Part shown: positions 13,393-55,515 of the stretch, piece after piece | Layout: each line of letters starts with the position of its first letter | Position numbering within the stretch: the first letter of the stretch is position 1 | NCBI GenBank assembly: GCA_037620855.1 | Contig: JASJLK010000091.1 | Location: 13,589-77,588, forward strand | Reading direction: 5' to 3' | DNA from: Synechococcus sp. ChBW.bin.23 | GTDB taxonomy: Bacteria; Cyanobacteriota; Cyanobacteriia; PCC-6307; Cyanobiaceae | DNA: 64,000 nucleotides | Translations under genes and position numbers: made by a program | The notes under the pieces: generated by a model | The model's input: only the letters and a program-made list of their open reading frames with translations | What the model was told of the DNA's origin: nothing | Database searches by the model: none

Positions 13393-13757
13393 GCTTGGCT
13401 CAAACCATCAAGGTTTACAGCTACTCCAGATGTTCAACTTGCCGTAGGGCCCTGGCATGGCTGGATGCCAACAATTTGGCTTATGAGGTCGTTGACATCA
13501 CAAAAGCTCCTCCTTCAAAAGAGATCCTTTTGCTTGCTTTCAAGCGGTTGGACCGCCGTCAACTTCTCTTCAACACCAGTGGCCAGAGCTACCGAGCCCT
13601 GGGAGCAGATGTTGTTAAAGCGATGAATGACGATGACGCACTGGCTGCGTTGGCTGCAGATGGGCGTTTGATCAAACGCCCTTTTGTTGCATTGCCCAGC
13701 GGCGATTTTTTGGTTGGATTCAAGCCCGAGGATTGGAACCAGGCTCTTTTGGGTTGA
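13389..13757 (+). CDS. ArsC/Spx/MgsR-family thioredoxin-fold protein
   Basis: CSTC (CxxC), NTSGQSYR, LIKRP; 4-nt overlap with the ferredoxin stop. Confidence 0.85.
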   Translation: MSLAQTIKVYSYSRCSTCRRALAWLDANNLAYEVVDITKAPPSKEILLLAFKRLDRRQLLFNTSGQSYRALGADVVKAMNDDDALAALAADGRLIKRPFVALPSGDFLVGFKPEDWNQALLG

Positions 13758-15225
13758 AATTGAGCCCATCGAGCTGGGTAATCAGTTCGTCCACGCCACC
13801 TTGAATGTGAAGTTGGAGCATGCTGGTGCGCTTGAAGTCTTCGAGAAACGCCACTAATAATTCTTGGCTTCGTTCCAGCACGACGCCTTGTTCGAGCGTG
13901 CGAGCGAGCTCCTCCCAAAAACGATCGAGCGTTTGAATCCCAAGATCTTCGAGAACTTGATCTTTCTGGCCAAGTTGGTCGCCCGCACTCTTTGAGAGCC
14001 CCAACAGCGAATCCACCATTCTTGTAGCGAGCTGACGGCTCAGTTCGGATTCTGCCTTTTGCACTCCAGGCAGCTCCCTTAGCGGTGCCGGTAAGACCAG
14101 ACCATCCAGATTCCGCTGAAGAGTGTGGCCGAATAGCGCCACAAGTTGTGGCCGCAGCCCTGGCCCCACTTGCGTGAGGATGAGAGGGAGCCAGAGCCGT
14201 AGTAGCTCCGCGAGTTCCCTTTCTTCGCTGCTGTCAACAGATTGATGACTACAAAGCCGGAGAATCCTGTTGGGAAGATTCGGCGAGCGCACGATGCCCT
14301 GCATTGCATCCAGAACACGCAGCGTGATCACTTCAAATAATTCGAGGGCCAGGACCGCGACAACGCCGCGACTGACGGCTGCTCGAAGGGGCTCAAGATT
14401 GAGAAGCTGAGCGCGGGATAGCCGCTCTGTGACTGGAACAACTCGCAATAGACGCCAAAATGGAATTAACAGCGGTAGGTCAATCCAACGTCTGAGTAAG
14501 GCGTCTCTCCACGCAATCGCCGGAAATCGACGTTTCAGTCGAAGCGTTCGAACCAGGATGTCCAGTAGAAACAGGATTTGAAAAGGAATGTCGATCCGCC
14601 AGGAAAGGTCGATTGGCATTCCGTTTTCATCAATTCCGCGCGAGTAATTGGTCTCCGCTAGCGGAAGAATTTTGGTGTTCCAAAACTGACGCTCTTGGCC
14701 CCAGTCGTGCTTGTTCAAGTAGCGGTCGCTGAGGAGATAGGCCGCTGCTTGTTTGGCTGAATCCATCTCAGCTCTCCCTCTGAGACGGTTCTTGAGCTTT
14801 TCGAATGCGCCTACATTTCCAGAGCTGATGAACGGGTTCTCATCGACTAACTGGCTATTCCTAACCACCATCTCAAGCCGCAATTGTCGAGCGGCTTGAC
14901 TGTTGATGCCCAACTTTGAAGCGGTGGTCTCGAGTCTGCGGAAGTGCTCGACGTAGGACATCGTGTCACGGTGAACTTCGATGCCCTTCAGCGGGTCGTA
15001 GATGGGTGTGATGTCCGGCAGCCACGGCAGTGGCAAGGCCAAGTTGATCGATGGAAGGGGATAGAGCGTTCTTTGCAGCCAGAAATTTCGCAACGGAATA
15101 TAGGTGACATCGAAAATCACCCAGATCAGATTGAGCGCTGCAATCAGGGCTAAGACCTGATCCCAGCGATTCCAGAACAATTGGATGGTGCGGGGTTTCA
15201 TGCCCTGCCAGCGGGGTCGGACCAT
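13720..15225 (-). CDS. Membrane protein with voltage-sensor-like S1-S4 module and long helical C-terminus
   Basis: 501 aa ORF; S1 WDQVLALIAALNLIWVIFD, S2 IDIPFQILFLLDILVR, S3 WIDLPLLIP, S4 WRLLRVVPVTERLSR. The CDS is solid; the function is inferred. Confidence 0.75.
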   Translation of the reverse strand: MVRPRWQGMKPRTIQLFWNRWDQVLALIAALNLIWVIFDVTYIPLRNFWLQRTLYPLPSINLALPLPWLPDITPIYDPLKGIEVHRDTMSYVEHFRRLETTASKLGINSQAARQLRLEMVVRNSQLVDENPFISSGNVGAFEKLKNRLRGRAEMDSAKQAAAYLLSDRYLNKHDWGQERQFWNTKILPLAETNYSRGIDENGMPIDLSWRIDIPFQILFLLDILVRTLRLKRRFPAIAWRDALLRRWIDLPLLIPFWRLLRVVPVTERLSRAQLLNLEPLRAAVSRGVVAVLALELFEVITLRVLDAMQGIVRSPNLPNRILRLCSHQSVDSSEERELAELLRLWLPLILTQVGPGLRPQLVALFGHTLQRNLDGLVLPAPLRELPGVQKAESELSRQLATRMVDSLLGLSKSAGDQLGQKDQVLEDLGIQTLDRFWEELARTLEQGVVLERSQELLVAFLEDFKRTSMLQLHIQGGVDELITQLDGLNFNPKEPGSNPRA

Positions 15226-15261: not shown

Positions 15262-16050
15262 TTGATCGCGCCTATCCTGCGTTTCAGGATTGAAGCAAGG
15301 TTCCTGTTGGTAGACAAGCAACACAACAGTCGTTCTGACGACGACCGGCCCAACAGCAGCGAGACTCTTCAGGAGGGCAATAAGGATCTAAAAAAAGAAC
15401 GAGGTTCTGGAAATCCGCTCTGGGATTTTTGGGGCCCGTTGTTGTTCACGATGGCTCTCTATTTCGGGATTCGTCACTATTTGGCAGAGGCACGCTTCAT
15501 TCCCTCAGGCTCGATGCTCCCTGGCTTGCAGATCCAAGATCGTCTGCTTGTCGAGAAGCTCACCTATCGCGGCCGCAAGCCTCGGCGGGGAGAAATTGTC
15601 GTGTTCAATTCCCCCTATGCCTTTGATCCTGCACTGCGCTCAACAACGTCGCCCCCACCTTTTCGATGCGTTCTCGCGAATATCCCTTTGATTGGGTTAA
15701 TTCCAGGCGTCAGTCATCAAGCTTGTGATGCCTACATCAAACGCGTTGTGGCTGTGGCGGGTGATCAGGTGGTGGTGAACCCTCGAGGAGAGGTGCGTGT
15801 GAACGGTGTTGATCTCGACGAATCGTATGTGACCAATTACTGCCCTCTGGACAAGCGGGGGATGAGCCTTTGCCGCACCCTGAATGCCACGGTCCCGGAG
15901 GGACGTGTTCTCGTTCTTGGTGACAACCGCAGTAACAGCTGGGATGGTCGCTACTGGCCGGGTGGAGCCTTCCTTCCTGAAGATCAGATTATTGGTCGAG
16001 CGGTTTGGCGTTTCTGGCCATTTAATCGACTTGGTTCGTTGGGATCCTGA
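15262..16050 (+). CDS. lepB: Signal peptidase I
   Basis: PSGSMLP (Ser), YIKRVV (Lys), GDNRSNSWDGR; start uncertain. Confidence 0.93.
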   Translation: MIAPILRFRIEARFLLVDKQHNSRSDDDRPNSSETLQEGNKDLKKERGSGNPLWDFWGPLLFTMALYFGIRHYLAEARFIPSGSMLPGLQIQDRLLVEKLTYRGRKPRRGEIVVFNSPYAFDPALRSTTSPPPFRCVLANIPLIGLIPGVSHQACDAYIKRVVAVAGDQVVVNPRGEVRVNGVDLDESYVTNYCPLDKRGMSLCRTLNATVPEGRVLVLGDNRSNSWDGRYWPGGAFLPEDQIIGRAVWRFWPFNRLGSLGS

Positions 16051-17299
16051 GTCCACAACTCACTACTTGCCCGCGCATGCGCACGCCTAGCCAAGGCTGG
16101 TTGGCAGCTTTAGGGGCGTGAGGAGCCTCGCGGGTTTGATCCCATGTTTGGTCAGGATCAAAAAGCAACCAGCGATTGCTTCCGAGGCTCAGTCGTTCTT
16201 CGTCCTGTCCAAGCAACCGTGCCGGACCGAAACTGAGCGCTTGCCAGAGTTGGTTCACACTCCATCCCAAATCGATCACGAGACGTTGCCAGAGCGTGGG
16301 CAGCACTAAGTGGTGACCGGACAAGCCTTTTGGACGTTGATCGGGAGGCAAAAGACACTCTTCATCGTCGAGAGGAATGCCATGAACAGCAACGGCGTTG
16401 ATCTTTCCTTCTCCTAGGGCCTGAATTAAGGCCAGGCGATCGCTTTGCCCACCAATGGAAGGGGTGACAAACCAATGGGTCTCTTCAGCTGTTTGGCTAG
16501 ATCGATCCTGCACGAGGTGCCACCAGCTCACAGTGGCCAGTGGAGATGACGTTGCATGGCTCAACATGTGCACTCCATCAGCAGTGGAGAGATTCATGAG
16601 CACAAGCTTGCGATTGATGTGGCGTCGCTGCAGTTCCAGGAGCTGCCCGATGGGCAGCGTTTCGCTGATGATTGGATCTGCAGGCCATCCGGCTCGTAGT
16701 GTTTCTACGCCTTCCCGGATCATTCCGTCTCCGCGCAGGTTGGAGTCATTGGGTGCAATCAGCACTGGGACTCCAGCCATTTCACCGAGAAGTAGGGCGC
16801 GGTTGATGAGGTTGGCAGACGGCATCTGCTCTCCAGCACACAGACCGATGGCACCTGCTTCAATCAGATCGGCGTGGAGGCTGAGGCGTTCTCCTTCACC
16901 GCGATGGGTGAAGCTTCCCCATAAATGAACTTTGAGATCGCAATCGCTCGGCTGGAATCCCTTTAAGCGTTCTGGGCTGTCCCGTTCCGATTCACCGTTT
17001 GGAAGTAGTGCTAGCTGCCCATAACCAGCTCGCCCTGCGGCGTTGATGAGGGTTTTGAGAGTCTCCCCACTTCCTGTAAATGGACTGGGAAGGCTTGAAT
17101 GTGGGTCAACAAGGCATGGGGCGAGAAGTTGCTGGGCCCGGTTTTGGCCCGAAACACCTCTCTCAGCAGCTCGCTGCCTTGCCTCTTCACCAAGGGCGAT
17201 AAGACGATCATCTTCAAAGAGAGCAGCACTTCCTACTTGGAGCGGCTGATCGCTGGCGACTAGAACCTGCACAGGGTCGAGCAGCATCGTCTCAGTCAT
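16022..17299 (-). CDS. Dihydroorotase-like protein, probably catalytically inactive (PyrC'-type)
   Basis: Amidohydrolase-fold pattern (PCLVDPH, AAGRAGY, LSFGPARLLG), but the metal ligands are degenerate. Confidence 0.82.
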   Translation of the reverse strand: MTETMLLDPVQVLVASDQPLQVGSAALFEDDRLIALGEEARQRAAERGVSGQNRAQQLLAPCLVDPHSSLPSPFTGSGETLKTLINAAGRAGYGQLALLPNGESERDSPERLKGFQPSDCDLKVHLWGSFTHRGEGERLSLHADLIEAGAIGLCAGEQMPSANLINRALLLGEMAGVPVLIAPNDSNLRGDGMIREGVETLRAGWPADPIISETLPIGQLLELQRRHINRKLVLMNLSTADGVHMLSHATSSPLATVSWWHLVQDRSSQTAEETHWFVTPSIGGQSDRLALIQALGEGKINAVAVHGIPLDDEECLLPPDQRPKGLSGHHLVLPTLWQRLVIDLGWSVNQLWQALSFGPARLLGQDEERLSLGSNRWLLFDPDQTWDQTREAPHAPKAANQPWLGVRMRGQVVSCGLRIPTNQVD

Positions 17300-17303
17300 G
17301 GGT

Positions 17304-18632
17304 TCACAGTGCTCCCGCTGCTGTTCGATCGAGAACCCCACCGAGGTGGGATGTGAGATTCAGGCAACTCACCACTGCAGGTTGGCTGGAATCTTCTGGC
17401 ATGTCGATCACCGTGACGCCACCGTTGCCTTGTTTCACGGACCAAATGTCCTTGGGCGCAAGGCCTAAGAGGTGACACAGGATTGTTTTGTTCACTGCAT
17501 CATGCGCCACAACTAAGGCTGTCTCTGACGGATCGAGGCCATCGGCGATGCTGTTCCAACACTCCACAGATCGTTCCCAAACGTCTTGAATCGTTTCGCC
17601 TTCGGGCATTTGTACTGTTTCGGGAGCGTCCTTCCAGGCTTGAAGTAACTCCTCCCAACCCTCACGAATTTCTGATTCGAGTTTCCCCTCCCAAAGCCCG
17701 TGACCGATTTCCATCAGACCATCAGTCACAGTGAGCGAGACGCCTGAATGCGATTTCAAAATCCCCTCAGCTGTTTCTCGTGGGCGAGACATAGAGCTGC
17801 TGTAGGCCCGATTCAGAGTCACACCCTCGAGGAAGGAGCGCGCAGCCTCTGCTTGGGCATGGCCGTTGCTGTTGAGTGGAATATCAATCTGTCCCTGGAA
17901 CCGTCCCTGCCGGTTCCAATCTGTTTCACCGTGGCGGACAAGGATCAGACGTGCCTTAGAGCCTTTGGCTGGCAGCGCAGGCTCTAGGTGGGCAATGCTG
18001 TTTAAGCATTCGATCTGTACTTGGTAACCATTCGGTCCTGGGGAGAGGTTGAACACCGACAACGATGCGTTGTCGAGGCGCAGACGCCTGAAACCTCCTT
18101 GAGGCTCGCCCAACAACACCAGAATTAAGCAGCGGAGAATAGCGTTGTGACCTACTACCAGGACGGTGTCGTCGCCAGTCACTGGATGCCGATCGATTAT
18201 GCATTTCAAGAAGGCCCGCGCCTGAACCATTAACTCGGTCACAGGTTGGTAACGCGTGCCGTCAGAGCGGGTGAGTTCTAGGGCTTCCGGTCGTTGACGC
18301 CAGGTGGCATAGCCCTCTGGATCCTTGATCGCCCGTTCATCGGCTGTTAGTCCGCTCCAGGGCTCAAGATCAATCTCCAGCAGTCCGTCATCTAGGACGG
18401 GGGCCAGCCCGTCTTGACGCACGCTCAGCACTCCGGCTGTGGTGGCGGCAGCACGTTGTAGAGGTGAGCTGTAGGCCGCATCAATCTGCACGTCGGCCAA
18501 GGCCACGCCCATGCGTCGCGCTTGGTCTTCGCCGGTCGCTGTGAGTGTTGATAGATCATTGCGCCCCTGAATGCGGCGCTCAACGTTGAAGCTGCTCAGG
18601 CCGTGGCGTAGCAGGAGGAGACGCAGTGACAC
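17304..18632 (-). CDS. Tandem-domain histidine phosphatase (phosphoglycerate mutase-like)
   Basis: Two RHG motifs (LRHGLS, VRHGET) and two V(G/A)H motifs; GTG start at 18632. Confidence 0.9.
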   Translation of the reverse strand: MSLRLLLLRHGLSSFNVERRIQGRNDLSTLTATGEDQARRMGVALADVQIDAAYSSPLQRAAATTAGVLSVRQDGLAPVLDDGLLEIDLEPWSGLTADERAIKDPEGYATWRQRPEALELTRSDGTRYQPVTELMVQARAFLKCIIDRHPVTGDDTVLVVGHNAILRCLILVLLGEPQGGFRRLRLDNASLSVFNLSPGPNGYQVQIECLNSIAHLEPALPAKGSKARLILVRHGETDWNRQGRFQGQIDIPLNSNGHAQAEAARSFLEGVTLNRAYSSSMSRPRETAEGILKSHSGVSLTVTDGLMEIGHGLWEGKLESEIREGWEELLQAWKDAPETVQMPEGETIQDVWERSVECWNSIADGLDPSETALVVAHDAVNKTILCHLLGLAPKDIWSVKQGNGGVTVIDMPEDSSQPAVVSCLNLTSHLGGVLDRTAAGAL

Positions 18633-22547: not shown

Positions 22548-23720
22548 ATGACCACCCTCCTTGAGCAGCTTTCCGCCATGACCGTGGTGGTGGCCGATAC
22601 GGGTGATCTCGAAGCGATCAGGCGTTTCACTCCTCGTGATGCGACCACCAATCCCTCCCTGATCCTTGCTGCAGCTCAGATTCCTGCTTACGAGAATCTC
22701 ATCGATGAAGCCTTGCGTTCGTCACGCCGGCTTCTAGGAGAGAGCGCTCCGGTGGAGCAAGTGGTGCATGAAGCGCTCGATGAAATCAGCGTGATATTCG
22801 GAAAGGAAATTCTGAAGATTGTTCCTGGCCGAGTTTCAACGGAGGTTGATGCCCGCCTCAGTTACGACACCGAGGCCACCATTGAAAAAGGTCGGAAACT
22901 TATCCGCCTCTACAACGACTCGGGAATCAGTAATGACCGTGTATTGATCAAAATTGCCTCCACGTGGGAAGGAATCAAAGCGGCAGAAGTTCTTGAGAAG
23001 GATGGAATTCATTGCAACCTCACGCTGCTGTTTGGCTTCTCTCAGGCTGTGGCCTGCGCCGAAGCAAGCGTCACGTTAATTTCGCCATTTGTTGGTCGCA
23101 TTCTCGATTGGTTCAAGGCCGACACAGGTCGCGATTCCTATCCAGGTCCAGAAGATCCTGGTGTGATTTCAGTGACCAGCATCTTCAACTACTTCAAGAC
23201 ATATGGCTACAAAACCGAAATCATGGGGGCCAGCTTCCGCAATCTTGATGAAATCACTGAGCTTGCAGGTTGTGATCTATTGACCATTTCCCCGAAATTG
23301 TTGGATCAATTGCGTAGTAGTGATACTTTGCTGATCCGCAAGTTAGATCCTGCAAATCTTGCCCCTGTTGCAGAGCAAATGAATGTGGACCAGGAGCGCT
23401 TCGTCTCCATGATGGCTGAGGACCGAATGTCTACCGACAAGCTCAGTGAAGGCATCAAAGGTTTCAGCAAAGCGATCGAAACTCTTGAGCAGCAGCTTGC
23501 TCATCGTTTGGCCCAGATCGAGGGTGGCGCCGCGTTCAGCCATGCTGTACAAGAGATTTTCTTATTGAATGATTTCAATGGTGATGGCTGCATCACCCGC
23601 GATGAATGGTTGGGAAGTGATGCGGTCTTTGATGCCTTGGATCAGGATCATGACGGTCGTTTGACACCAGACGATGTGCGCTTGGGTTTCGGTGGCGCTT
23701 TGTCTTTGACCGCCTTTTGA
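22548..23720 (+). CDS. tal: Transaldolase with C-terminal EF-hand pair
   Basis: [26 protein letters not shown]; EF loops [12 protein letters not shown] and [12 protein letters not shown]. Confidence 0.95.
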
Positions 23721-23857: not shown

Positions 23858-25390
23858 TTGGCTGCAATGGCGCTCCAGCTTGTCTGGTTCAAGCGAGACC
23901 TTCGGGTGACGGATCACCAGCCTCTGCAGCAGGCCTTGCTTAGGGGGCCAGTGCTGCCTCTTTATGTCGTTGAGCCCGAGTTGTGGCGGCAGCAAGATGC
24001 TTCCGAGCGGCAGTGGTTGTTTTGCCGAGAGTCTTTGCTGGATTTGCGTCTCGCTCTGGCTGAGCTAGGCCAACCGCTGCTGGTGCGCAGTGGTGATGTC
24101 TTGGACATTTTTGATCGTGCCCATCGTCAATTTGGTCTTGATGGGCTCTGGAGCCATGAAGAAACCGGAAATGGTTGGACGTATCAGCGTGACCAACGCG
24201 TAGCTCTCTGGTGCCGGCAGAACGGCATCGCTTGGAAGGAGATTCCCCAATTTGGCGTGATCCGCCGTCTACGTTCCCGCAATCGTTGGGCCAAACGCTG
24301 GGAGGCGCAGATGGCTGAGCTGATCACCCCTTCCCCTTTAGGACTGCCATCGATCGAGGGGATCGAGGGGATCGAGGCCGGCATCATTCCTGATCGCCCC
24401 CATCAGGAGATGGCATCCGATCCATGCCCGCATCGCCAAAGCGGTGGTCGTTCGATGGCATTGCTGGAACTGGACGATTTCCTCGAACATCGCGCGTCCG
24501 GATATGCCCGCTCCATCTCCAGTCCCAACACAGCGTTTACCGGCTGCTCTCGTCTCTCTTCTTATCTCACTTGGGGGTGTCTCTCGATGCGAGAGGTCAT
24601 CCAAACAAGCCGTGGCTTCAGTGGTCGTGGGATTAGCAGTTTTGAGTCACGCCTGCATTGGCATTGCCACTTCATCCAAAAGCTTGAAGCGCAGCCAGCG
24701 ATTGAGTTCGAAGATTTTCATCCGTTCATGCGCGGGTTGCGCTGTGCGAATAATGAGCGACTCGCTGCCTGGGCGGACGGACGCACTGGAGTTCCTTTCG
24801 TGGATGCCTGCATGCGCGCATTGCGGGCCCATGGTTGGATCAACTTCAGAATGCGAGCGATGTTGATGTCGTTTGCCAGCTATCACCTTTGGTTGCCATG
24901 GCGGGATAGCGGACTTCATCTAGCGCGACAGTTTGTGGACTACGAGCCCGGGATCCACTGGAGCCAGTGCCAAATGCAGTCAGGCAGCACAGCCATCAAT
25001 ACCGTGAGGGTCTACAACCCGATCAAGCAGGGGCAAGACCATGACTTGAAGGGCGAATTCATTCGCACTTGGCTTCCTGAACTTCACCTGGTTCCCGATG
25101 TCTACGTGCATGAGCCTTGGAAGTTGTCGATGGCTGCGCAACGACAAGCAGGGCTCCAGCTTGGAGCGGACTATCCCCTGCCCATCGTTGAACCTGCGCT
25201 TGCGGCTCGGGAGGCGAAGCAGAGGATTTGGGCGATCAGGGAGCGCTCTGGATTTTCTGCTATTGCTGATGGAATTCAGCAGCGCCATGGGTCGAGACGT
25301 TCAGGCTTAGCGCCCACGGGTCAAGGTCGCCGCCGTCGACGGCGAAACCCTGCGCCTGATGATTCCCAACAGCTCACTCTTGATCTTTAA
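23858..25390 (+). CDS. DNA photolyase/cryptochrome family flavoprotein
   Basis: WFKRDLR, SRLSSYL, RLHWHCHFIQK, TGVPFVDACMR, GWINFRMR, RVYNP; subclass not resolved. Confidence 0.9.
   Translation: MAAMALQLVWFKRDLRVTDHQPLQQALLRGPVLPLYVVEPELWRQQDASERQWLFCRESLLDLRLALAELGQPLLVRSGDVLDIFDRAHRQFGLDGLWSHEETGNGWTYQRDQRVALWCRQNGIAWKEIPQFGVIRRLRSRNRWAKRWEAQMAELITPSPLGLPSIEGIEGIEAGIIPDRPHQEMASDPCPHRQSGGRSMALLELDDFLEHRASGYARSISSPNTAFTGCSRLSSYLTWGCLSMREVIQTSRGFSGRGISSFESRLHWHCHFIQKLEAQPAIEFEDFHPFMRGLRCANNERLAAWADGRTGVPFVDACMRALRAHGWINFRMRAMLMSFASYHLWLPWRDSGLHLARQFVDYEPGIHWSQCQMQSGSTAINTVRVYNPIKQGQDHDLKGEFIRTWLPELHLVPDVYVHEPWKLSMAAQRQAGLQLGADYPLPIVEPALAAREAKQRIWAIRERSGFSAIADGIQQRHGSRRSGLAPTGQGRRRRRRNPAPDDSQQLTLDL
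24352..24377 (+). repeat. 9-bp tandem repeat (GATCGAGGG x ~2.9) inside the photolyase gene
   Basis: gatcgaggg gatcgaggg gatcgagg, encoding IEG-IEG-IEA in frame. Confidence 0.9.
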
Positions 25391-26517
25391 CCCCTTTGCA
25401 GCATTAAGCGGCGGATTACCCTCTGTGCGATGTCCCCGTATCCCATTTCACCAGAGAGAATTTGGGCAATGCGCTGCGGCGCAGTGGGACGTTTGATTCC
25501 GAGTTGATACCCCACATTTGGAAAGCGATAAAACACCTGGGCAATGCGACGCCCCCAAGCCATCGAATCGCCCCAGCGTTCGCGCATCCGTTTTGAGTAG
25601 TTGGAAAGGTCAGGCTGAGTCCCGTTCAGCCAAGAATCGAGACTTGCCGCTGCTTCACAGCCGCTCATCAGCGATGGCCTGAGGCCTTCGGCAAGAAAGG
25701 GGTCGCAGAGCGACGCGGCATCACCTACTGCCACCACGCCTTTGCCGTGGAGGGGTGAGTGGCCATTCCAAACTCTTAAATCCGCGTTTTGTCGCAGCCC
25801 GTCTGTGGAGGAAAACCCTAAATCCGGTAGGAGTTGTTCGAGCACGGCTTCCGCATCACTGGCCCGACGTCCAATAAACGTGCCCACTCCCACATTGATG
25901 CCGTTTGCTAGTGGAAACGCCCAGGCGAATCCATGGTGGACGAGCCCAAATTCAAACCTGGCTGTGCCAGGTTGCAATCTTCCCATTCCTTCGAGGCGAA
26001 CAGAAAGCGTCTTGGCCATGTGGAGAGATCGAGGGCCGATCCCCAAGCGTGTTGGCCAGGGAGAACCTGAGCCATCAGCCAGAACGACGGCTCTGGCCTC
26101 GATCACCTCCCCGTCCGTGCTGCATACAAGCCAATGGCTTTCATCCTGCTGAAGGTCCGCGACCTCGAAGGGCCGCCGCAGCTCTGCCCCTAAAGCGATC
26201 GATTGCTCCAGCAAGAGTGCGTCGAGCCGCTCACGCTTGACGATCCAGAAGGGTGCAGAGCCTGGAAGCTCAGCGACCACAGGATCAGTGAGACACCAGC
26301 TGAAATCCACCTGTTTGATGATGTCATCAACGGCTGGTTGTAAGTCGAAGGGGAACCACTTCTGAACGGAGGCCGCCATCCCACCAGCGCATGGTTTCAC
26401 CCGCTCTGATCGGTTGCGTTCCAGGACGGTGACGCGATGACCCAATCGGGTGAGATGGAAGGCTGCGCTTGAGCCGGCTGCACCGGCACCGATGACAGCA
26501 ACGTCAGTGGTGCTCAA
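25387..26517 (-). CDS. Geranylgeranyl-reductase-family FAD-dependent oxidoreductase
   Basis: GAGAAG, KPCAGG, FAWAFP, VGDAA...EG motifs; substrate unknown. Confidence 0.8.
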
Positions 26518-53946: not shown

Positions 53947-55515
53947 TTAGGCACTGAAGTGAGCTTTCGCGTCATACAGAGTTTCGCTGTCGATTTGGTT
54001 GCGTCCAGTGGATTTGGCAAATGTTTCGGTGTTTCGGCGTACTTTCCCCCGAACGAAGAAGGGGATCTTCTTCAGCTCCGCTTCTCCATCAGCAGTCCAG
54101 ACCAGCTCGTCCTTAAGGGTACTGATAGCCACCTCCGTTTCTGCAACAGCTCCAGAACCTCCCGCATGACCAAGGTGGCTTTGATGGCCATCCACGAATT
54201 CAAAATCGTGCCGGAACATGCCGATGAGGTGCTCCTCTAAGCCCATCATCAGCGGGTGCACCCAGCTGTCGAAGATCACGTTCGCTCCCTCCCAGCCCAT
54301 TTGAGGACTGTTGCGTGCCGGCACGTCTTGAACATGCATCGGTGTGCTGATCACTGCACAGGGGAGGCCAAGTCGTTTGGCGCTGTGTCGTTCCATTTGG
54401 GTCCCGAGCACCAGTTCTGGTGCAGCTGCGGCCATCGCTGCCTCGACCTCGAGGTAGTCATCACTGATGAGGGCCTCAAGTCCCATCGCTTTCGCTGCCG
54501 CTCGCACGGGTCGAGCCATCTCTCTGCTGTAGGTGCCTAGGCCCACCACTTCAAAGCCCAGCTCGTCTTTGCATATCCGCGCTGCTGCCAAGGCATGGGT
54601 TCCATCTCCAAAGATGAACACCCTTTTTCCTGTGAGGTAGGTGGAGTCGACAGATTCGGAGTACCAGGGCAGCCTGGACTGACGAATTCCCGCTTGGGGG
54701 GAAGGTGGTGTCATCCCCAGCAGATTGTGAACTTCAACAAGGAAGTCTTGGGTTGCGCCGATGCCAATCGGCACGGTGCTGGTGAACGGGATTCCAAAAC
54801 TGCGCTCGAGCCAAGCACAGCTTGATTCGGCGATCTCTGGGTATAGGCACACATTGAGGTCGGCTTCTGGGAGTCGATGCACATCTGCAACCGTGGCTCC
54901 CAACGGAGCTACTACCCCCACGTCGATGCCATGCATGCTCAGCAGTCTTTGAACTTCAAGGACATCGTCTCGACAGCGAAAGCCCAGCAACGAAGGACCC
55001 AGCAGATTCACGCGAGGACGACGTCCCTGGTGTTGCCATGCTTTGGGGTCATGCGTGAGCTCGGCAGGAGCCTGATCTTTCAACAGAGTCCGAATCAGTT
55101 GATAGAAGGTTTCTGCTGCACCCCAATTCTCTTTTTTGCTGTAGGCCGGTAGCTCCAAGTTCACGACCGGCATGCTCAATCCCATGCTGATGGCTAAGGC
55201 GCCGGCTTGGTCCTGGATTAATTCCGCGGTGCAGCTTTCGCCAACAAGAAGAGCATCGGGTTGGAAGCGATCAACCGCTTCTCTGACGTGGCGCTTCACC
55301 AGTTCCGCGGTGTCACCGCCGAGATCTCTGGCCTGAAAGGTTGTGTAGGTGACAGGAGGTCGTTTATCTCGCCGCTCGATCATCGTGAAAAGGAGATCGG
55401 CATAGGTGTCGCCCTGGGGCGAGTGCAGCACGTAATGGACACCTTCCATAGATGCTGCAATGCGCATGGCACCAACGTGAGGTGGCCCTTCGTATGTCCA
55501 GAGGGTGAGTTGCAT
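53947..55515 (-). CDS. chlB: Dark-operative protochlorophyllide reductase subunit B
   Basis: [24 protein letters not shown]-terminal PCP_red [10 protein letters not shown]. Confidence 0.97.

Follow-up and report, generated by a model that had tools for sequence, protein, structure and literature searches.

A Cryptochrome-like Protein Family with a Conserved Candidate Sliding-Clamp-Binding Motif at Its Disordered C Terminus

Introduction

The NewCRY proteins are a subfamily of the photolyase/cryptochrome superfamily (CPF) defined by Emmerich et al. (2020), with VcCry2 (VC1392) of Vibrio cholerae as the prototype (PMC7736829). Some 8% of the superfamily belongs to this NewCRY/VcCry2-like branch; repair activity is not known for it, and a function in signalling has been proposed (PMC7736829). 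Two other classes, Cry-DASH and NewPHL, repair CPDs in ssDNA. In the 2003 study by Worthington and colleagues, VcCry2 reportedly bound FAD and photolyase activity was not seen, and we know of no function assigned to the branch since that purification.

Partners of the bacterial β sliding clamp (DnaN) carry a short peptide with the consensus Q-φ-x-[L/M]-x-[F/L] or Q-φ-x-[L/M]-[F/L], typically placed at the C terminus with a free carboxylate and mostly flanked by acidic residues, and all of them compete for one cleft (PMC11139829). CPF members are absent from the partners listed in this 2024 review (PMC11139829). The clients in Escherichia coli include Pol IV (QLVLGL), Pol II (QLGLF), UmuC (QLNLF) and Hda (QLSLPL), with QL[S/D]LF as the pentamer consensus. 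In eukaryotes the clamp is PCNA, which recruits ALKBH2 via an APIM motif and UNG2 via an N-terminal PIP box, while ZRANB3 is targeted to (poly-ubiquitinated) PCNA at stalled forks.

We have studied a CPF protein of a marine Synechococcus, encoded within a 64-kb stretch of DNA, the whole of which is termed the window below. A sequence-only reading had suggested that this protein ends in a β-clamp-binding motif, a link that it believed to be undescribed, and we too found no publication on it within the literature searched. The analysis presented here suggests that the protein family is tethered to the sliding clamp through its C-terminal motif, to which we assign a probability of roughly 0.72. 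A light-dependent activity of the clamp-docked protein is much less certain than the tether itself.

Results and Discussion

The Gene and the Fold of Its Product

The open reading frame occupies positions 23858–25390 of the window on the + strand, on which all features given below also lie. Counted from a TTG at 23858 it encodes 510 amino acids, a numbering that we use throughout, and it ends at a TAA stop codon at 25388–25390. The real start is probably the ATG at 23867, giving a protein of 507 amino acids with the N terminus MALQLVWF, because the close homologs P0001 and P0004 begin in this way. No paralogs were found within the window.

The two-domain architecture of the CPF superfamily is evident both from Pfam and from an AlphaFold2 (AF2) model. 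An N-terminal α/β (antenna) domain (PF00875, DNA_photolyase, E = 1.5e-24) is encoded at 23879–24241 (residues 8–128), with its strands and helices modelled at pLDDT 80–95, and an FAD-binding helical domain (PF03441, FAD_binding_7, E = 8.6e-65) at 24641–25231 (residues 262–458). The photolyase-homology (PHR) body is folded with confidence in the model, and the closest solved structures are all CPF members, with 22–28% identity and TM scores of about 0.7. Taking the SRLS phosphate motif, W338, R344 and D372 of E. coli photolyase as the reference for FAD contacts, we find S231-R232-L-S, W327, R333 and D361 aligned with them and (near-)invariant. Judged by this alignment, the FAD site is kept.

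None of the curated NCBIfam photolyase models reaches its cutoff for the window protein. For the class I/III CPD photolyases the scores were 166.6 against 506 (NF007955) and 115.5 against 884.6 (TIGR03556), and for Cry-DASH 132.3 bits against 317 (TIGR02765). The DPRP domain (PF04244) of the FeS-BCP, or bacterial (6-4), type gave no match in the Pfam search.

With NewCRY, the window protein shares a complete two-domain CPF architecture from which E274 and N341 of E. coli photolyase are absent, as seen in alignment to 1DNP. Members of both groups were formerly annotated as 'deoxyribodipyrimidine photo-lyase', and in Pseudoalteromonas the homologs are named 'Cryptochrome-like protein cry2', a label derived from Swiss-Prot. 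By these residues and homolog names, placement in the orphan NewCRY/VcCry2-like branch fits. Vibrio homologs were not among the matches listed in two genome scans and an Alteromonadales-seeded homolog search. Two features differ from the published account of NewCRY, which describes the branch as bacterial and haloarchaeal and discusses signalling only, without mention of a clamp motif or replication (PMC7736829): the family studied here includes a large stramenopile clade, and the window protein has the motif. Proteins of haloarchaea are expected to be very acidic in composition, and this was seen in 0 of 150 representatives.

A Remodelled Lesion Pocket

The subfamily signature SRLHWHCHFIQK is encoded at 24647–24682 (residues 264–275). 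In the alignment to 1DNP, R265 takes the position of E274 of E. coli photolyase and W268 that of W277. Across 145 representatives and 115 eukaryotic members, R265, H271 and F272 show almost no variation. The other lesion contacts of class I/III CPD photolyases are replaced as well, N341 by F330 and M345 by A334, as is the flavin-N5 residue N378, by H367. In the same 145 representatives and 115 eukaryotic members the R, F, A and H at these four positions are (near-)invariant. W384 has become C371, and is a cysteine or an aliphatic residue across the relatives. The residues contacting the DNA backbone or FAD (R342, R344, R397 and W277 in E. coli numbering) are conserved. As read from these alignments, the window protein is not a canonical photolyase; its lesion pocket is remodelled and its FAD site retained. 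It had been identified at first sight as a photolyase/cryptochrome, of which the membership of the CPF stands and the status of a canonical photolyase does not.

Might the clamp nevertheless recruit a true photolyase of the CPD (or 6-4) type, for photoreactivation at stalled forks or ssDNA gaps? The CPF fold, the FAD site and the conserved equivalents of W277, R342 and R397 would suit such an enzyme, there is good support for the clamp motif (see below), and repair of CPDs in ssDNA by Cry-DASH and NewPHL provides a precedent within the superfamily. These two classes are thought to act on non-duplex DNA, the context that a clamp tether would favour. They differ from the window protein in retaining the residues that bind the CPD and in having no reported clamp motif, and NewPHL differs further in its inverted domain order. 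Against a true photolyase stand the (near-)invariant substitutions of E274, N341, M345 and N378, the loss of W384, the failure to reach any NCBIfam photolyase cutoff, and the photolyase activity that VcCry2 is said to lack. The His-His pair of the (6-4) photolyases is also missing, the positions that we take to be equivalent holding F330 and A334. We regard a bona fide photolyase as quite unlikely. The coupling of photorepair to stalled forks that the sequence-only reading drew from the motif is thus reduced to one hypothesis among several, the residues that contact the CPD having been replaced.

The Disordered Tail and Its Terminal Hexapeptide

The last helix of the folded body ends in a conserved HGSR (25286–25297, residues 477–480), which anchors the tail. 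Within the close set its H, G and S do not vary and its R hardly does, and both bacterial and eukaryotic clades preserve the sequence. Beyond it lies an intrinsically disordered tail (25289–25387, residues 478–510), for which AF2 gives no secondary structure, pLDDT below 50 at residues 478–504 and 506–510, and no docking onto the folded body. The tail contains a run of six arginine residues (25328–25345, residues 491–496) within the sequence GQGRRRRRRNP (25319–25351), and ends in QLTLDL (25370–25387, residues 505–510), encoded by CAG CTC ACT CTT GAT CTT directly before the stop codon. The arginine-rich, disordered tail and the position of its terminal hexapeptide had been noticed from the letters of the DNA, and the coordinates and the AF2 model bear this out.

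The hexapeptide fits the clamp consensus Q-φ-x-[L/M]-x-[F/L], lies at a disordered and accessible terminus, and is conserved at its contact positions (see below), as would be expected of a β-clamp client. The five residues immediately upstream are acidic or polar; the wider flank is strongly basic, unlike that of known clamp motifs. Relatives have K/R-rich equivalents of the arginine run, and R prevails 10 to 14 residues before the motif among 69 unique tails. The run is a basic patch that would probably contact DNA or the acidic surface of the clamp.

A second candidate, QLVWF near the N terminus (residues 7–11), was rejected as a clamp motif. It belongs to the first β-strand of the Rossmann-like domain (strand E6–11 in the AF2 model) and has W at motif position 4.

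Conservation of the Motif in Bacteria

Conservation of the C-terminal motif among orthologs in spite of a variable tail had been set in advance as the test of the proposal. We found QLxLx(L/F) at the C terminus, or at most 5 residues from it, in all 120 of the closest clusters (64%–97% identity). Within 69 unique tails, Q and the following L are present in 69/69, the fourth position is L or F in 69/69 and the sixth in 68/69 (I in the remaining one), whereas the third and fifth positions vary. The motif is the very C terminus in 64 of these tails, and the linker that precedes it ranges from 16 to 31 amino acids with a highly variable sequence. More widely, the motif occurs at 64 of 77 genome loci, and in 60 of 150 representatives of clusters at 50% identity (∼40%).

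The form of the motif differs between clades. In Cyanobacteria we counted 112 hexamers and no pentamers; in a gammaproteobacterial clade of Pseudoalteromonas and Marinobacter there were 79 pentamers, mostly QLSLF, and 5 hexamers. Alphaproteobacteria, Chloroflexota and Rhodothermales have QLSLPL, QLDFDL or QLSLPF. Among the relatives are exact copies of four E. coli motifs (QLVLGL, QLSLPL, QLNLF and QLGLF). The family thus has the same motif grammar as the E. coli clients, the same disordered terminus and the same interchange of pentamers and hexamers. It differs in the nature of the client, since those known are polymerases, an AAA+ regulator and mismatch-repair proteins, and the window protein is a putative light-dependent flavoprotein. 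Both HGSR and the motif are absent from whole lineages, such as a group of Flavobacteriales around P0249, and for this reason clamp tethering appears to be dispensable for the core chemistry of the family.

A motif as short as this will also arise by chance at the end of a disordered tail under no selection. By rough estimate a match to Q-φ-x-[LM]-x-[FL] at the C terminus is expected about 0.5 to 1 times per proteome, and with ∼0.5 expected a single match proves nothing. Of the stop-to-stop open reading frames of at least 100 amino acids in the window, 1 of 167 ends in the motif. Shuffled tails contained it in 0.6%–1.1% of cases (0.6%–0.8% for composition-matched shuffles), an enrichment of 50- to 100-fold in the real tails. 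It was present in 0 of 427 neighboring open reading frames, including 16 adjacent FeS-BCP photolyases, against 37 of 77 in the CPF family. The contact positions are fixed across phyla in a tail that otherwise varies freely, and since they are conserved in this way across orthologs the motif goes beyond chance. The probability that it is neutral sequence is, in our estimation, negligible.

We also considered whether the C terminus is constrained by the convergent downstream gene, which overlaps the reading frame by 4 nt. This was rejected: the overlap takes in no more of codon L510 than its final base, and other taxa that keep the motif do not have the convergent neighbor.

Eukaryotic Relatives and a Fusion in Deinococcus

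All of the subfamily signature residues are shared by 115 eukaryotic members, most of them from diatoms. The bacterial type of clamp motif is found anywhere in the tail in just 3 of 117 eukaryotic members, and at the C terminus in none. In 68 of the 117, a sequence Q-x-x-I-x-x-[M/L/F]-[F/L] lies about 30 residues past HGSR, compared with 1.5% of shuffled tails and 0–1 PIP-like matches in bacterial clades. Positions 1, 4 and 8 of this motif fit the PIP box Q-x-x-ψ-x-x-θ-θ; at position 7 most members have M or L, and a minority an aromatic residue (e.g., QPGIQSFF). In about 105 eukaryotic members the C terminus is formed by an NZF/RanBP2-type zinc finger bearing a TF signature. On this comparison, a PIP-like motif replaces the bacterial clamp motif in eukaryotes, so that the type of motif follows the type of clamp. 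The original proposal that QLTLDL is a β-clamp motif is strengthened by this replacement and by the alternation of hexamer and pentamer. If confirmed, this would be a rare enzyme family in which clamp motifs have been swapped between domains of life.

The eukaryotic relatives recall ZRANB3 in this respect, a likeness that does not extend to the window protein. Both combine a PIP or PIP-like motif with an NZF finger. ZRANB3 has an APIM motif in addition and a different catalytic domain, and position 7 of the PIP-like motif in the relatives departs from the canonical box.

In one cluster of 35 sequences, of which all that are named come from Deinococcus, the CPF protein is fused to a uracil-DNA glycosylase (UNG), with QPDLF kept in the linker between the two parts. 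The layout resembles that of UNG2, where a clamp-binding motif is followed by the UNG. ALKBH2 and UNG2 embody the same concept as that proposed here, in which a lesion-reversal or base-excision enzyme is brought to forks by a clamp-binding peptide, but they belong to other enzyme families and use PCNA, where the window protein would use the β clamp.

These observations also bear on the idea that the C-terminal peptide serves a target other than the clamp, as an autoinhibitory contact, a protease degron or a site for some other partner. Hydrophobic C termini can act as degrons, the flank of QLTLDL is more basic than is usual around clamp motifs, and binding to DnaN is itself deduced from the motif. 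Such roles would have to account for the alternation of pentamer and hexamer, with exact matches to Pol II, Pol IV, UmuC and Hda of E. coli, and for the substitution of a PIP-like motif and NZF finger in eukaryotes. They would likewise have to account for the UNG fusion, where QPDLF is kept inside the linker, away from the C terminus. We consider a target other than the clamp very unlikely.

A Clamp-Tethered Flavoprotein

In the model that we propose, the folded body ends at HGSR, and the tail of about 30 residues that follows comprises the basic run, a short acidic or polar spacer and QLTLDL. The hexapeptide would fit into the hydrophobic cleft on DnaN, the β sliding clamp, where Pol III α, Pols II, IV and V, Hda and MutS also bind. 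The tether would hold the flavoprotein on DNA-loaded clamps, both at replication forks and in their wake, as well as at repair gaps, with the arginine run probably adding a non-specific contact with DNA. The clamp-bound protein may then act on DNA in a light-dependent manner, most probably by directly reversing a UV or photo-oxidative lesion at a fork, a gap or in ssDNA. The lesion that serves as substrate would differ from those of canonical CPD or 6-4 repair.

A different role for the same tail would make this CPF branch, in bacteria and algae, a clamp-docked photoreceptor. The protein would be a true cryptochrome with the tail as its clamp ligand, released or masked on photoreduction of the flavin, so that clamp binding is switched by light. 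It would modulate replication or the traffic of polymerases as a light checkpoint rather than repair lesions, and, if true, would couple blue/UV-A light to fork traffic without lesion reversal. The absence of the CPD-contact residues is in keeping with this, as is the signalling proposed for the branch. The clamp motif is placed exactly as are the C-terminal effector tails of cryptochromes; with a single cleft shared by all partners, an abundant binder could control access to the clamp; and the VC1392 operon of V. cholerae is induced by blue light. On the other hand, the tail is not docked on the body in the AF2 model, with pLDDT below 50, the DNA-contacting arginines are conserved, and the UNG fusion in Deinococcus suggests repair chemistry. 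In addition, knockout of all three CPF genes of V. cholerae left the blue-light transcriptome unchanged, although that result concerns transcription and not replication. We think a light-gated regulator of this kind unlikely.

Returning to the tethered flavoprotein, the conserved clamp-type tail would give the NewCRY/VcCry2-like branch a cellular address, at the replisome or at clamps left on the DNA. Should this be confirmed, a light-dependent flavoprotein would for the first time be counted among the clients of a sliding clamp. Marine picocyanobacteria and diatoms experience high UV exposure and replicate their DNA on a diel schedule, and the proposal bears on the protection of replicating DNA in the dominant phototrophs of the ocean.

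The surroundings of the gene in the window are those of housekeeping genes, namely an ftsI-type PBP, tal, a member of the GG-reductase family, frr, pyrH and cobA. This context carries no functional signal. Elsewhere, a gene for a (6-4)-type FeS-BCP photolyase adjoins the CPF gene in 16 of 80 related genomes.

The protein and its tail

The photolyase/cryptochrome-family (CPF) protein of the window is encoded by an ORF of 510 aa at 23858-25390 (+), listed with a TTG start. Because close homologs begin MALQLVWF, the ATG at 23867 is likelier to be the real start than this TTG. Pfam detects both photolyase/cryptochrome domains, PF00875 (residues 8-128) and PF03441 (residues 262-458). An AlphaFold2 model using 54 homologs has a confident fold (pTM 0.80), in which residues 478-510 have pLDDT <50 and no secondary structure, so that the tail is predicted to be disordered, as the sequence-only reading had held. 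This segment includes the Arg-rich stretch GQGRRRRRRNP (25319-25351, +). The last codons (25370-25390, CAG CTC ACT CTT GAT CTT TAA) translate exactly into the QLTLDL end described in that reading, followed by the stop.

The active site is remodelled

The protein is approximately equidistant from all solved CPF classes (E ~1e-40, identity 22-28%, TM ~0.7), and falls below every cutoff of the NCBIfam photolyase and cryptochrome models. Alignment with E. coli photolyase reveals retention of the FAD phosphate motif, W277, W338, R342, R344, W359, D372 and R397, with E274, N341, M345, N378, W384 and W306 replaced by R265, F330, A334, H367, C371 and C296, respectively. Of these changes, those to R, F, A and H show no variation across 145 bacterial representatives and 115 eukaryotic members; H271, Q370 and M373 are invariant or nearly so in the same sets.

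As judged from this alignment, the window protein is not a canonical CPD or (6-4) photolyase, because the lesion-pocket residues E274, N341, M345 and N378 are replaced. The sequence-only reading was of a classical photolyase ending in a clamp motif, with photorepair coupled to stalled forks or gaps. This explanation, second in weight among the rivals, is disfavoured by the active site (E274 to R, N341 to F, M345 to A, N378 to H). Absence of E274 and N341 is the hallmark of 'NewCRY', a subfamily with VcCry2 as prototype; it has no known repair activity, and a signalling role has been put forward for it (PMC7736829). The window protein is a probable member of this subfamily, and 'Cryptochrome-like protein cry2' is the name given to some homologs. 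Since the pocket is conserved yet remodelled and the DNA-contact arginines are retained, the residues suggest another DNA-related substrate or a sensory role for the subfamily.

The pocket of the window protein also holds H267, H269, C270 and H271 (24656-24670), with H367 and C371 (24956-24970). This His/Cys set is common to the protein and its picocyanobacterial relatives, H271 and H367 being invariant family-wide, and might constitute a metal site or support new chemistry.

The terminal motif is conserved

We estimate that about one C-terminal match to a beta-clamp (DnaN)-binding motif is expected by chance per proteome; a lone instance is thus no proof, and it is conservation that has to decide. 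The expectation that QLxL(F/xL) would be conserved was borne out. QLx(L/F)x(L/F) lies at the C-terminus or within 5 residues of it in 120/120 of the closest 90%-identity clusters, which are from marine Synechococcus/Cyanobium and 64-97% identical to the window protein. Among 69 unique tails, positions 1 and 2 are always Q and L, all 69 have L or F at position 4, and 68 have L or F at position 6, the remaining one having I; position 3 is free to vary (entropy 2.5 bits) and position 5 is variable. The upstream linker of 16-31 residues varies in length and sequence except for the Arg run. By its sequence, the tail has the position-specific pattern expected of a clamp-binding motif, published as Q-phi-x-[L/M]-x-[F/L] or Q-phi-x-[L/M]-[F/L] (PMC11139829).

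Of 150 representatives of 50%-identity clusters, 60 carry the motif within their last 40 residues, 49 of them no more than 3 residues from the end; shuffled tails gave the motif in 0.8%. At 80 genome loci a canonical terminal motif is present in 37/77 CPF proteins and in 0/427 neighbouring ORFs, and the CPF ORF is the sole one of 167 in the window to carry it. A chance origin of the terminal motif is excluded, and ranks last among the rivals.

The motif occurs in Cyanobacteria, in Alpha-proteobacteria (Ruegeria, Dinoroseobacter, Thalassospira, Rhizobiaceae), in Gamma-proteobacteria (Marinobacter, Pseudoalteromonas, Saliniradius, Psychrosphaera, Halomonadaceae), and in Chloroflexota and Rhodothermales, and its form depends on the taxon. 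Hexamers number 112 and pentamers 0 in the cyanobacterial set, against 5 and 79 in the gammaproteobacterial set, where most pentamers are QLSLF, the classical consensus; the Rhodobacterales form is QLSLPL or QLSLPF. Some relatives carry motifs identical to those of E. coli Pol IV (QLVLGL), Hda (QLSLPL), UmuC (QLNLF) and Pol II (QLGLF). Non-terminal motifs are followed by short acidic residues, e.g., QLSLFD and QLDLPLGD, consistent with the flank preference in the clamp-motif review (PMC11139829).

Among the 50%-identity representatives, the Flavobacteriales group around P0249 lacks both the motif and HGSR (residues 477-480 of the window protein, where the last helix ends and the tail begins). 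The P0249 cluster and similar representatives (P0200-P0260) keep the active-site signature of the subfamily, with a short '...RILARHVVP...' replacing the HGSR/basic/clamp-motif tail. The sequences indicate that in Bacteroidota the tail was either lost or never acquired. Because some lineages are without the tail, clamp tethering would be an accessory feature of the subfamily, though a widespread and probably ancient one.

A different motif in eukaryotes

A homolog search seeded with the long representative P0270 found a eukaryotic clade comprising Nitzschia, Cylindrotheca, Amphora, Skeletonema, Thalassiosira, Triparma and Heterosigma, together with Chlorarachnion and Amoebophrya (stramenopile, chlorarachniophyte and Amoebophrya members P0270 and P0451-P0569, outside the window). 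The described range of the family is bacteria and haloarchaea (PMC7736829), whereas here the subfamily extends to eukaryotes. All 115 aligned eukaryotic members keep the signature residues, including HGSR.

Their tails, with a median length of 130 aa, are longer. A bacterial-type clamp motif occurs anywhere in 3/117, and at the C-terminus in 0/117. In 68/117, Q-x-x-I-x-x-[M/L/F]-[F/L] is found ~30 residues past HGSR (1.5% of shuffled tails), e.g., QTSIKAMF, QPKISSMF and QPGIQSFF, sitting where bacterial members have the clamp motif. It resembles the canonical PIP box, Q-x-x-psi-x-x-theta-theta, but position 7 is non-canonical; PIP-like matches number 0/120 and 1/116 in bacterial clades. About 105 eukaryotic members end in an NZF/RanBP2-type zinc finger, W-x-C-x2-C-T-[F/Y]-x-N...C-x2-C, with the T-F ubiquitin-binding signature. 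These tails resemble part of the PCNA-recruiting module of ZRANB3, in which a PIP box and NZF finger engage poly-ubiquitinated PCNA at stalled forks.

The conclusion that emerges from the motifs is that, at one and the same position in the tail, a single subfamily has a beta-clamp motif in its bacterial members and a PCNA-type motif in its eukaryotic ones. This switch is the strongest argument for sliding-clamp binding as the job of the tail; that the peptide has some other receptor is third in weight among the rivals.

Fusion and gene neighbours

In the P0187 cluster (35 sequences, the named members listed all being Deinococcus isolates) the CPF subfamily is fused to a uracil-DNA glycosylase domain (PF03167, HPSPLS motif) in a protein of 761 aa. 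In the linker between both domains, ...THGSRKK...SDQPDLFG..., HGSR is retained along with a basic stretch and a clamp motif of the pentamer type (QPDLF). The fusion, as a feature of sequence, points to DNA repair. NCBI names the entire protein 'uracil-DNA glycosylase'.

The CPF gene adjoins a FeS-BCP/DPRP (PF04244) bacterial (6-4)-type photolyase gene in 16/80 genomes of several phyla (loci L006, L039, L040, L042, L047, L051, L054-L056, L059, L061, L063, L065, L066, L069 and L072); none of the neighbouring FeS-BCP photolyases at these 16 loci has a clamp motif. A few loci repeatedly show amine-oxidase and SDR genes near the CPF gene as well, and the neighbourhood has the look of a cluster of light/UV-stress genes.

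Proposed mechanism

The observations comprise the motif grammar and its conservation, the predicted disorder of the tail, the forms particular to each taxon, the motif switch between bacteria and eukaryotes, and the UNG fusion. The most likely mechanism for the window protein is one in which QLTLDL, at the end of the disordered tail, would dock in the DnaN cleft and thereby hold the flavoprotein on loaded clamps, both at forks and at gaps. Added DNA affinity would come from the Arg run, and the flavin domain would perform a light-dependent transaction on DNA nearby. The first-ranked rival is that the protein acts as a light-gated regulator of clamp access. With tethering, the clamp motif would give an orphan CPF branch a cellular address.

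Full-text literature searches returned no description of a link between photolyase/cryptochrome and the beta clamp, sliding clamp or PCNA, in keeping with the earlier statement that none was known. Photolyase is unmentioned in the 2024 beta-clamp review (PMC11139829), as is the clamp in the NewCRY paper (PMC7736829). A known motif is thus found on a known superfamily, in a previously undescribed combination.

Other features of the window

The window (GC 55%) includes priA, with DEAD helicase and PriA_C domains (60-2339, +), and a light-independent protochlorophyllide reductase subunit gene (53947-55515, -). Taken with the taxonomy of the homologs, these features point to a picocyanobacterium of the marine Synechococcus type. 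The ORFs at 13720-15225 (-; 501 aa) and 16022-17341 (-; 439 aa) have no Pfam match at E<=1e-10. The CPF gene overlaps a convergent geranylgeranyl-reductase-family gene (25387-26517, -) by 4 nt (25387-25390), the stops interlocking within CTTTAA. The transaldolase gene (22548-23720, +) encodes a C-terminal extension with two EF-hand-like loops of 12 residues each; this form is already catalogued, since NCBIfam NF008965 spans its full length.
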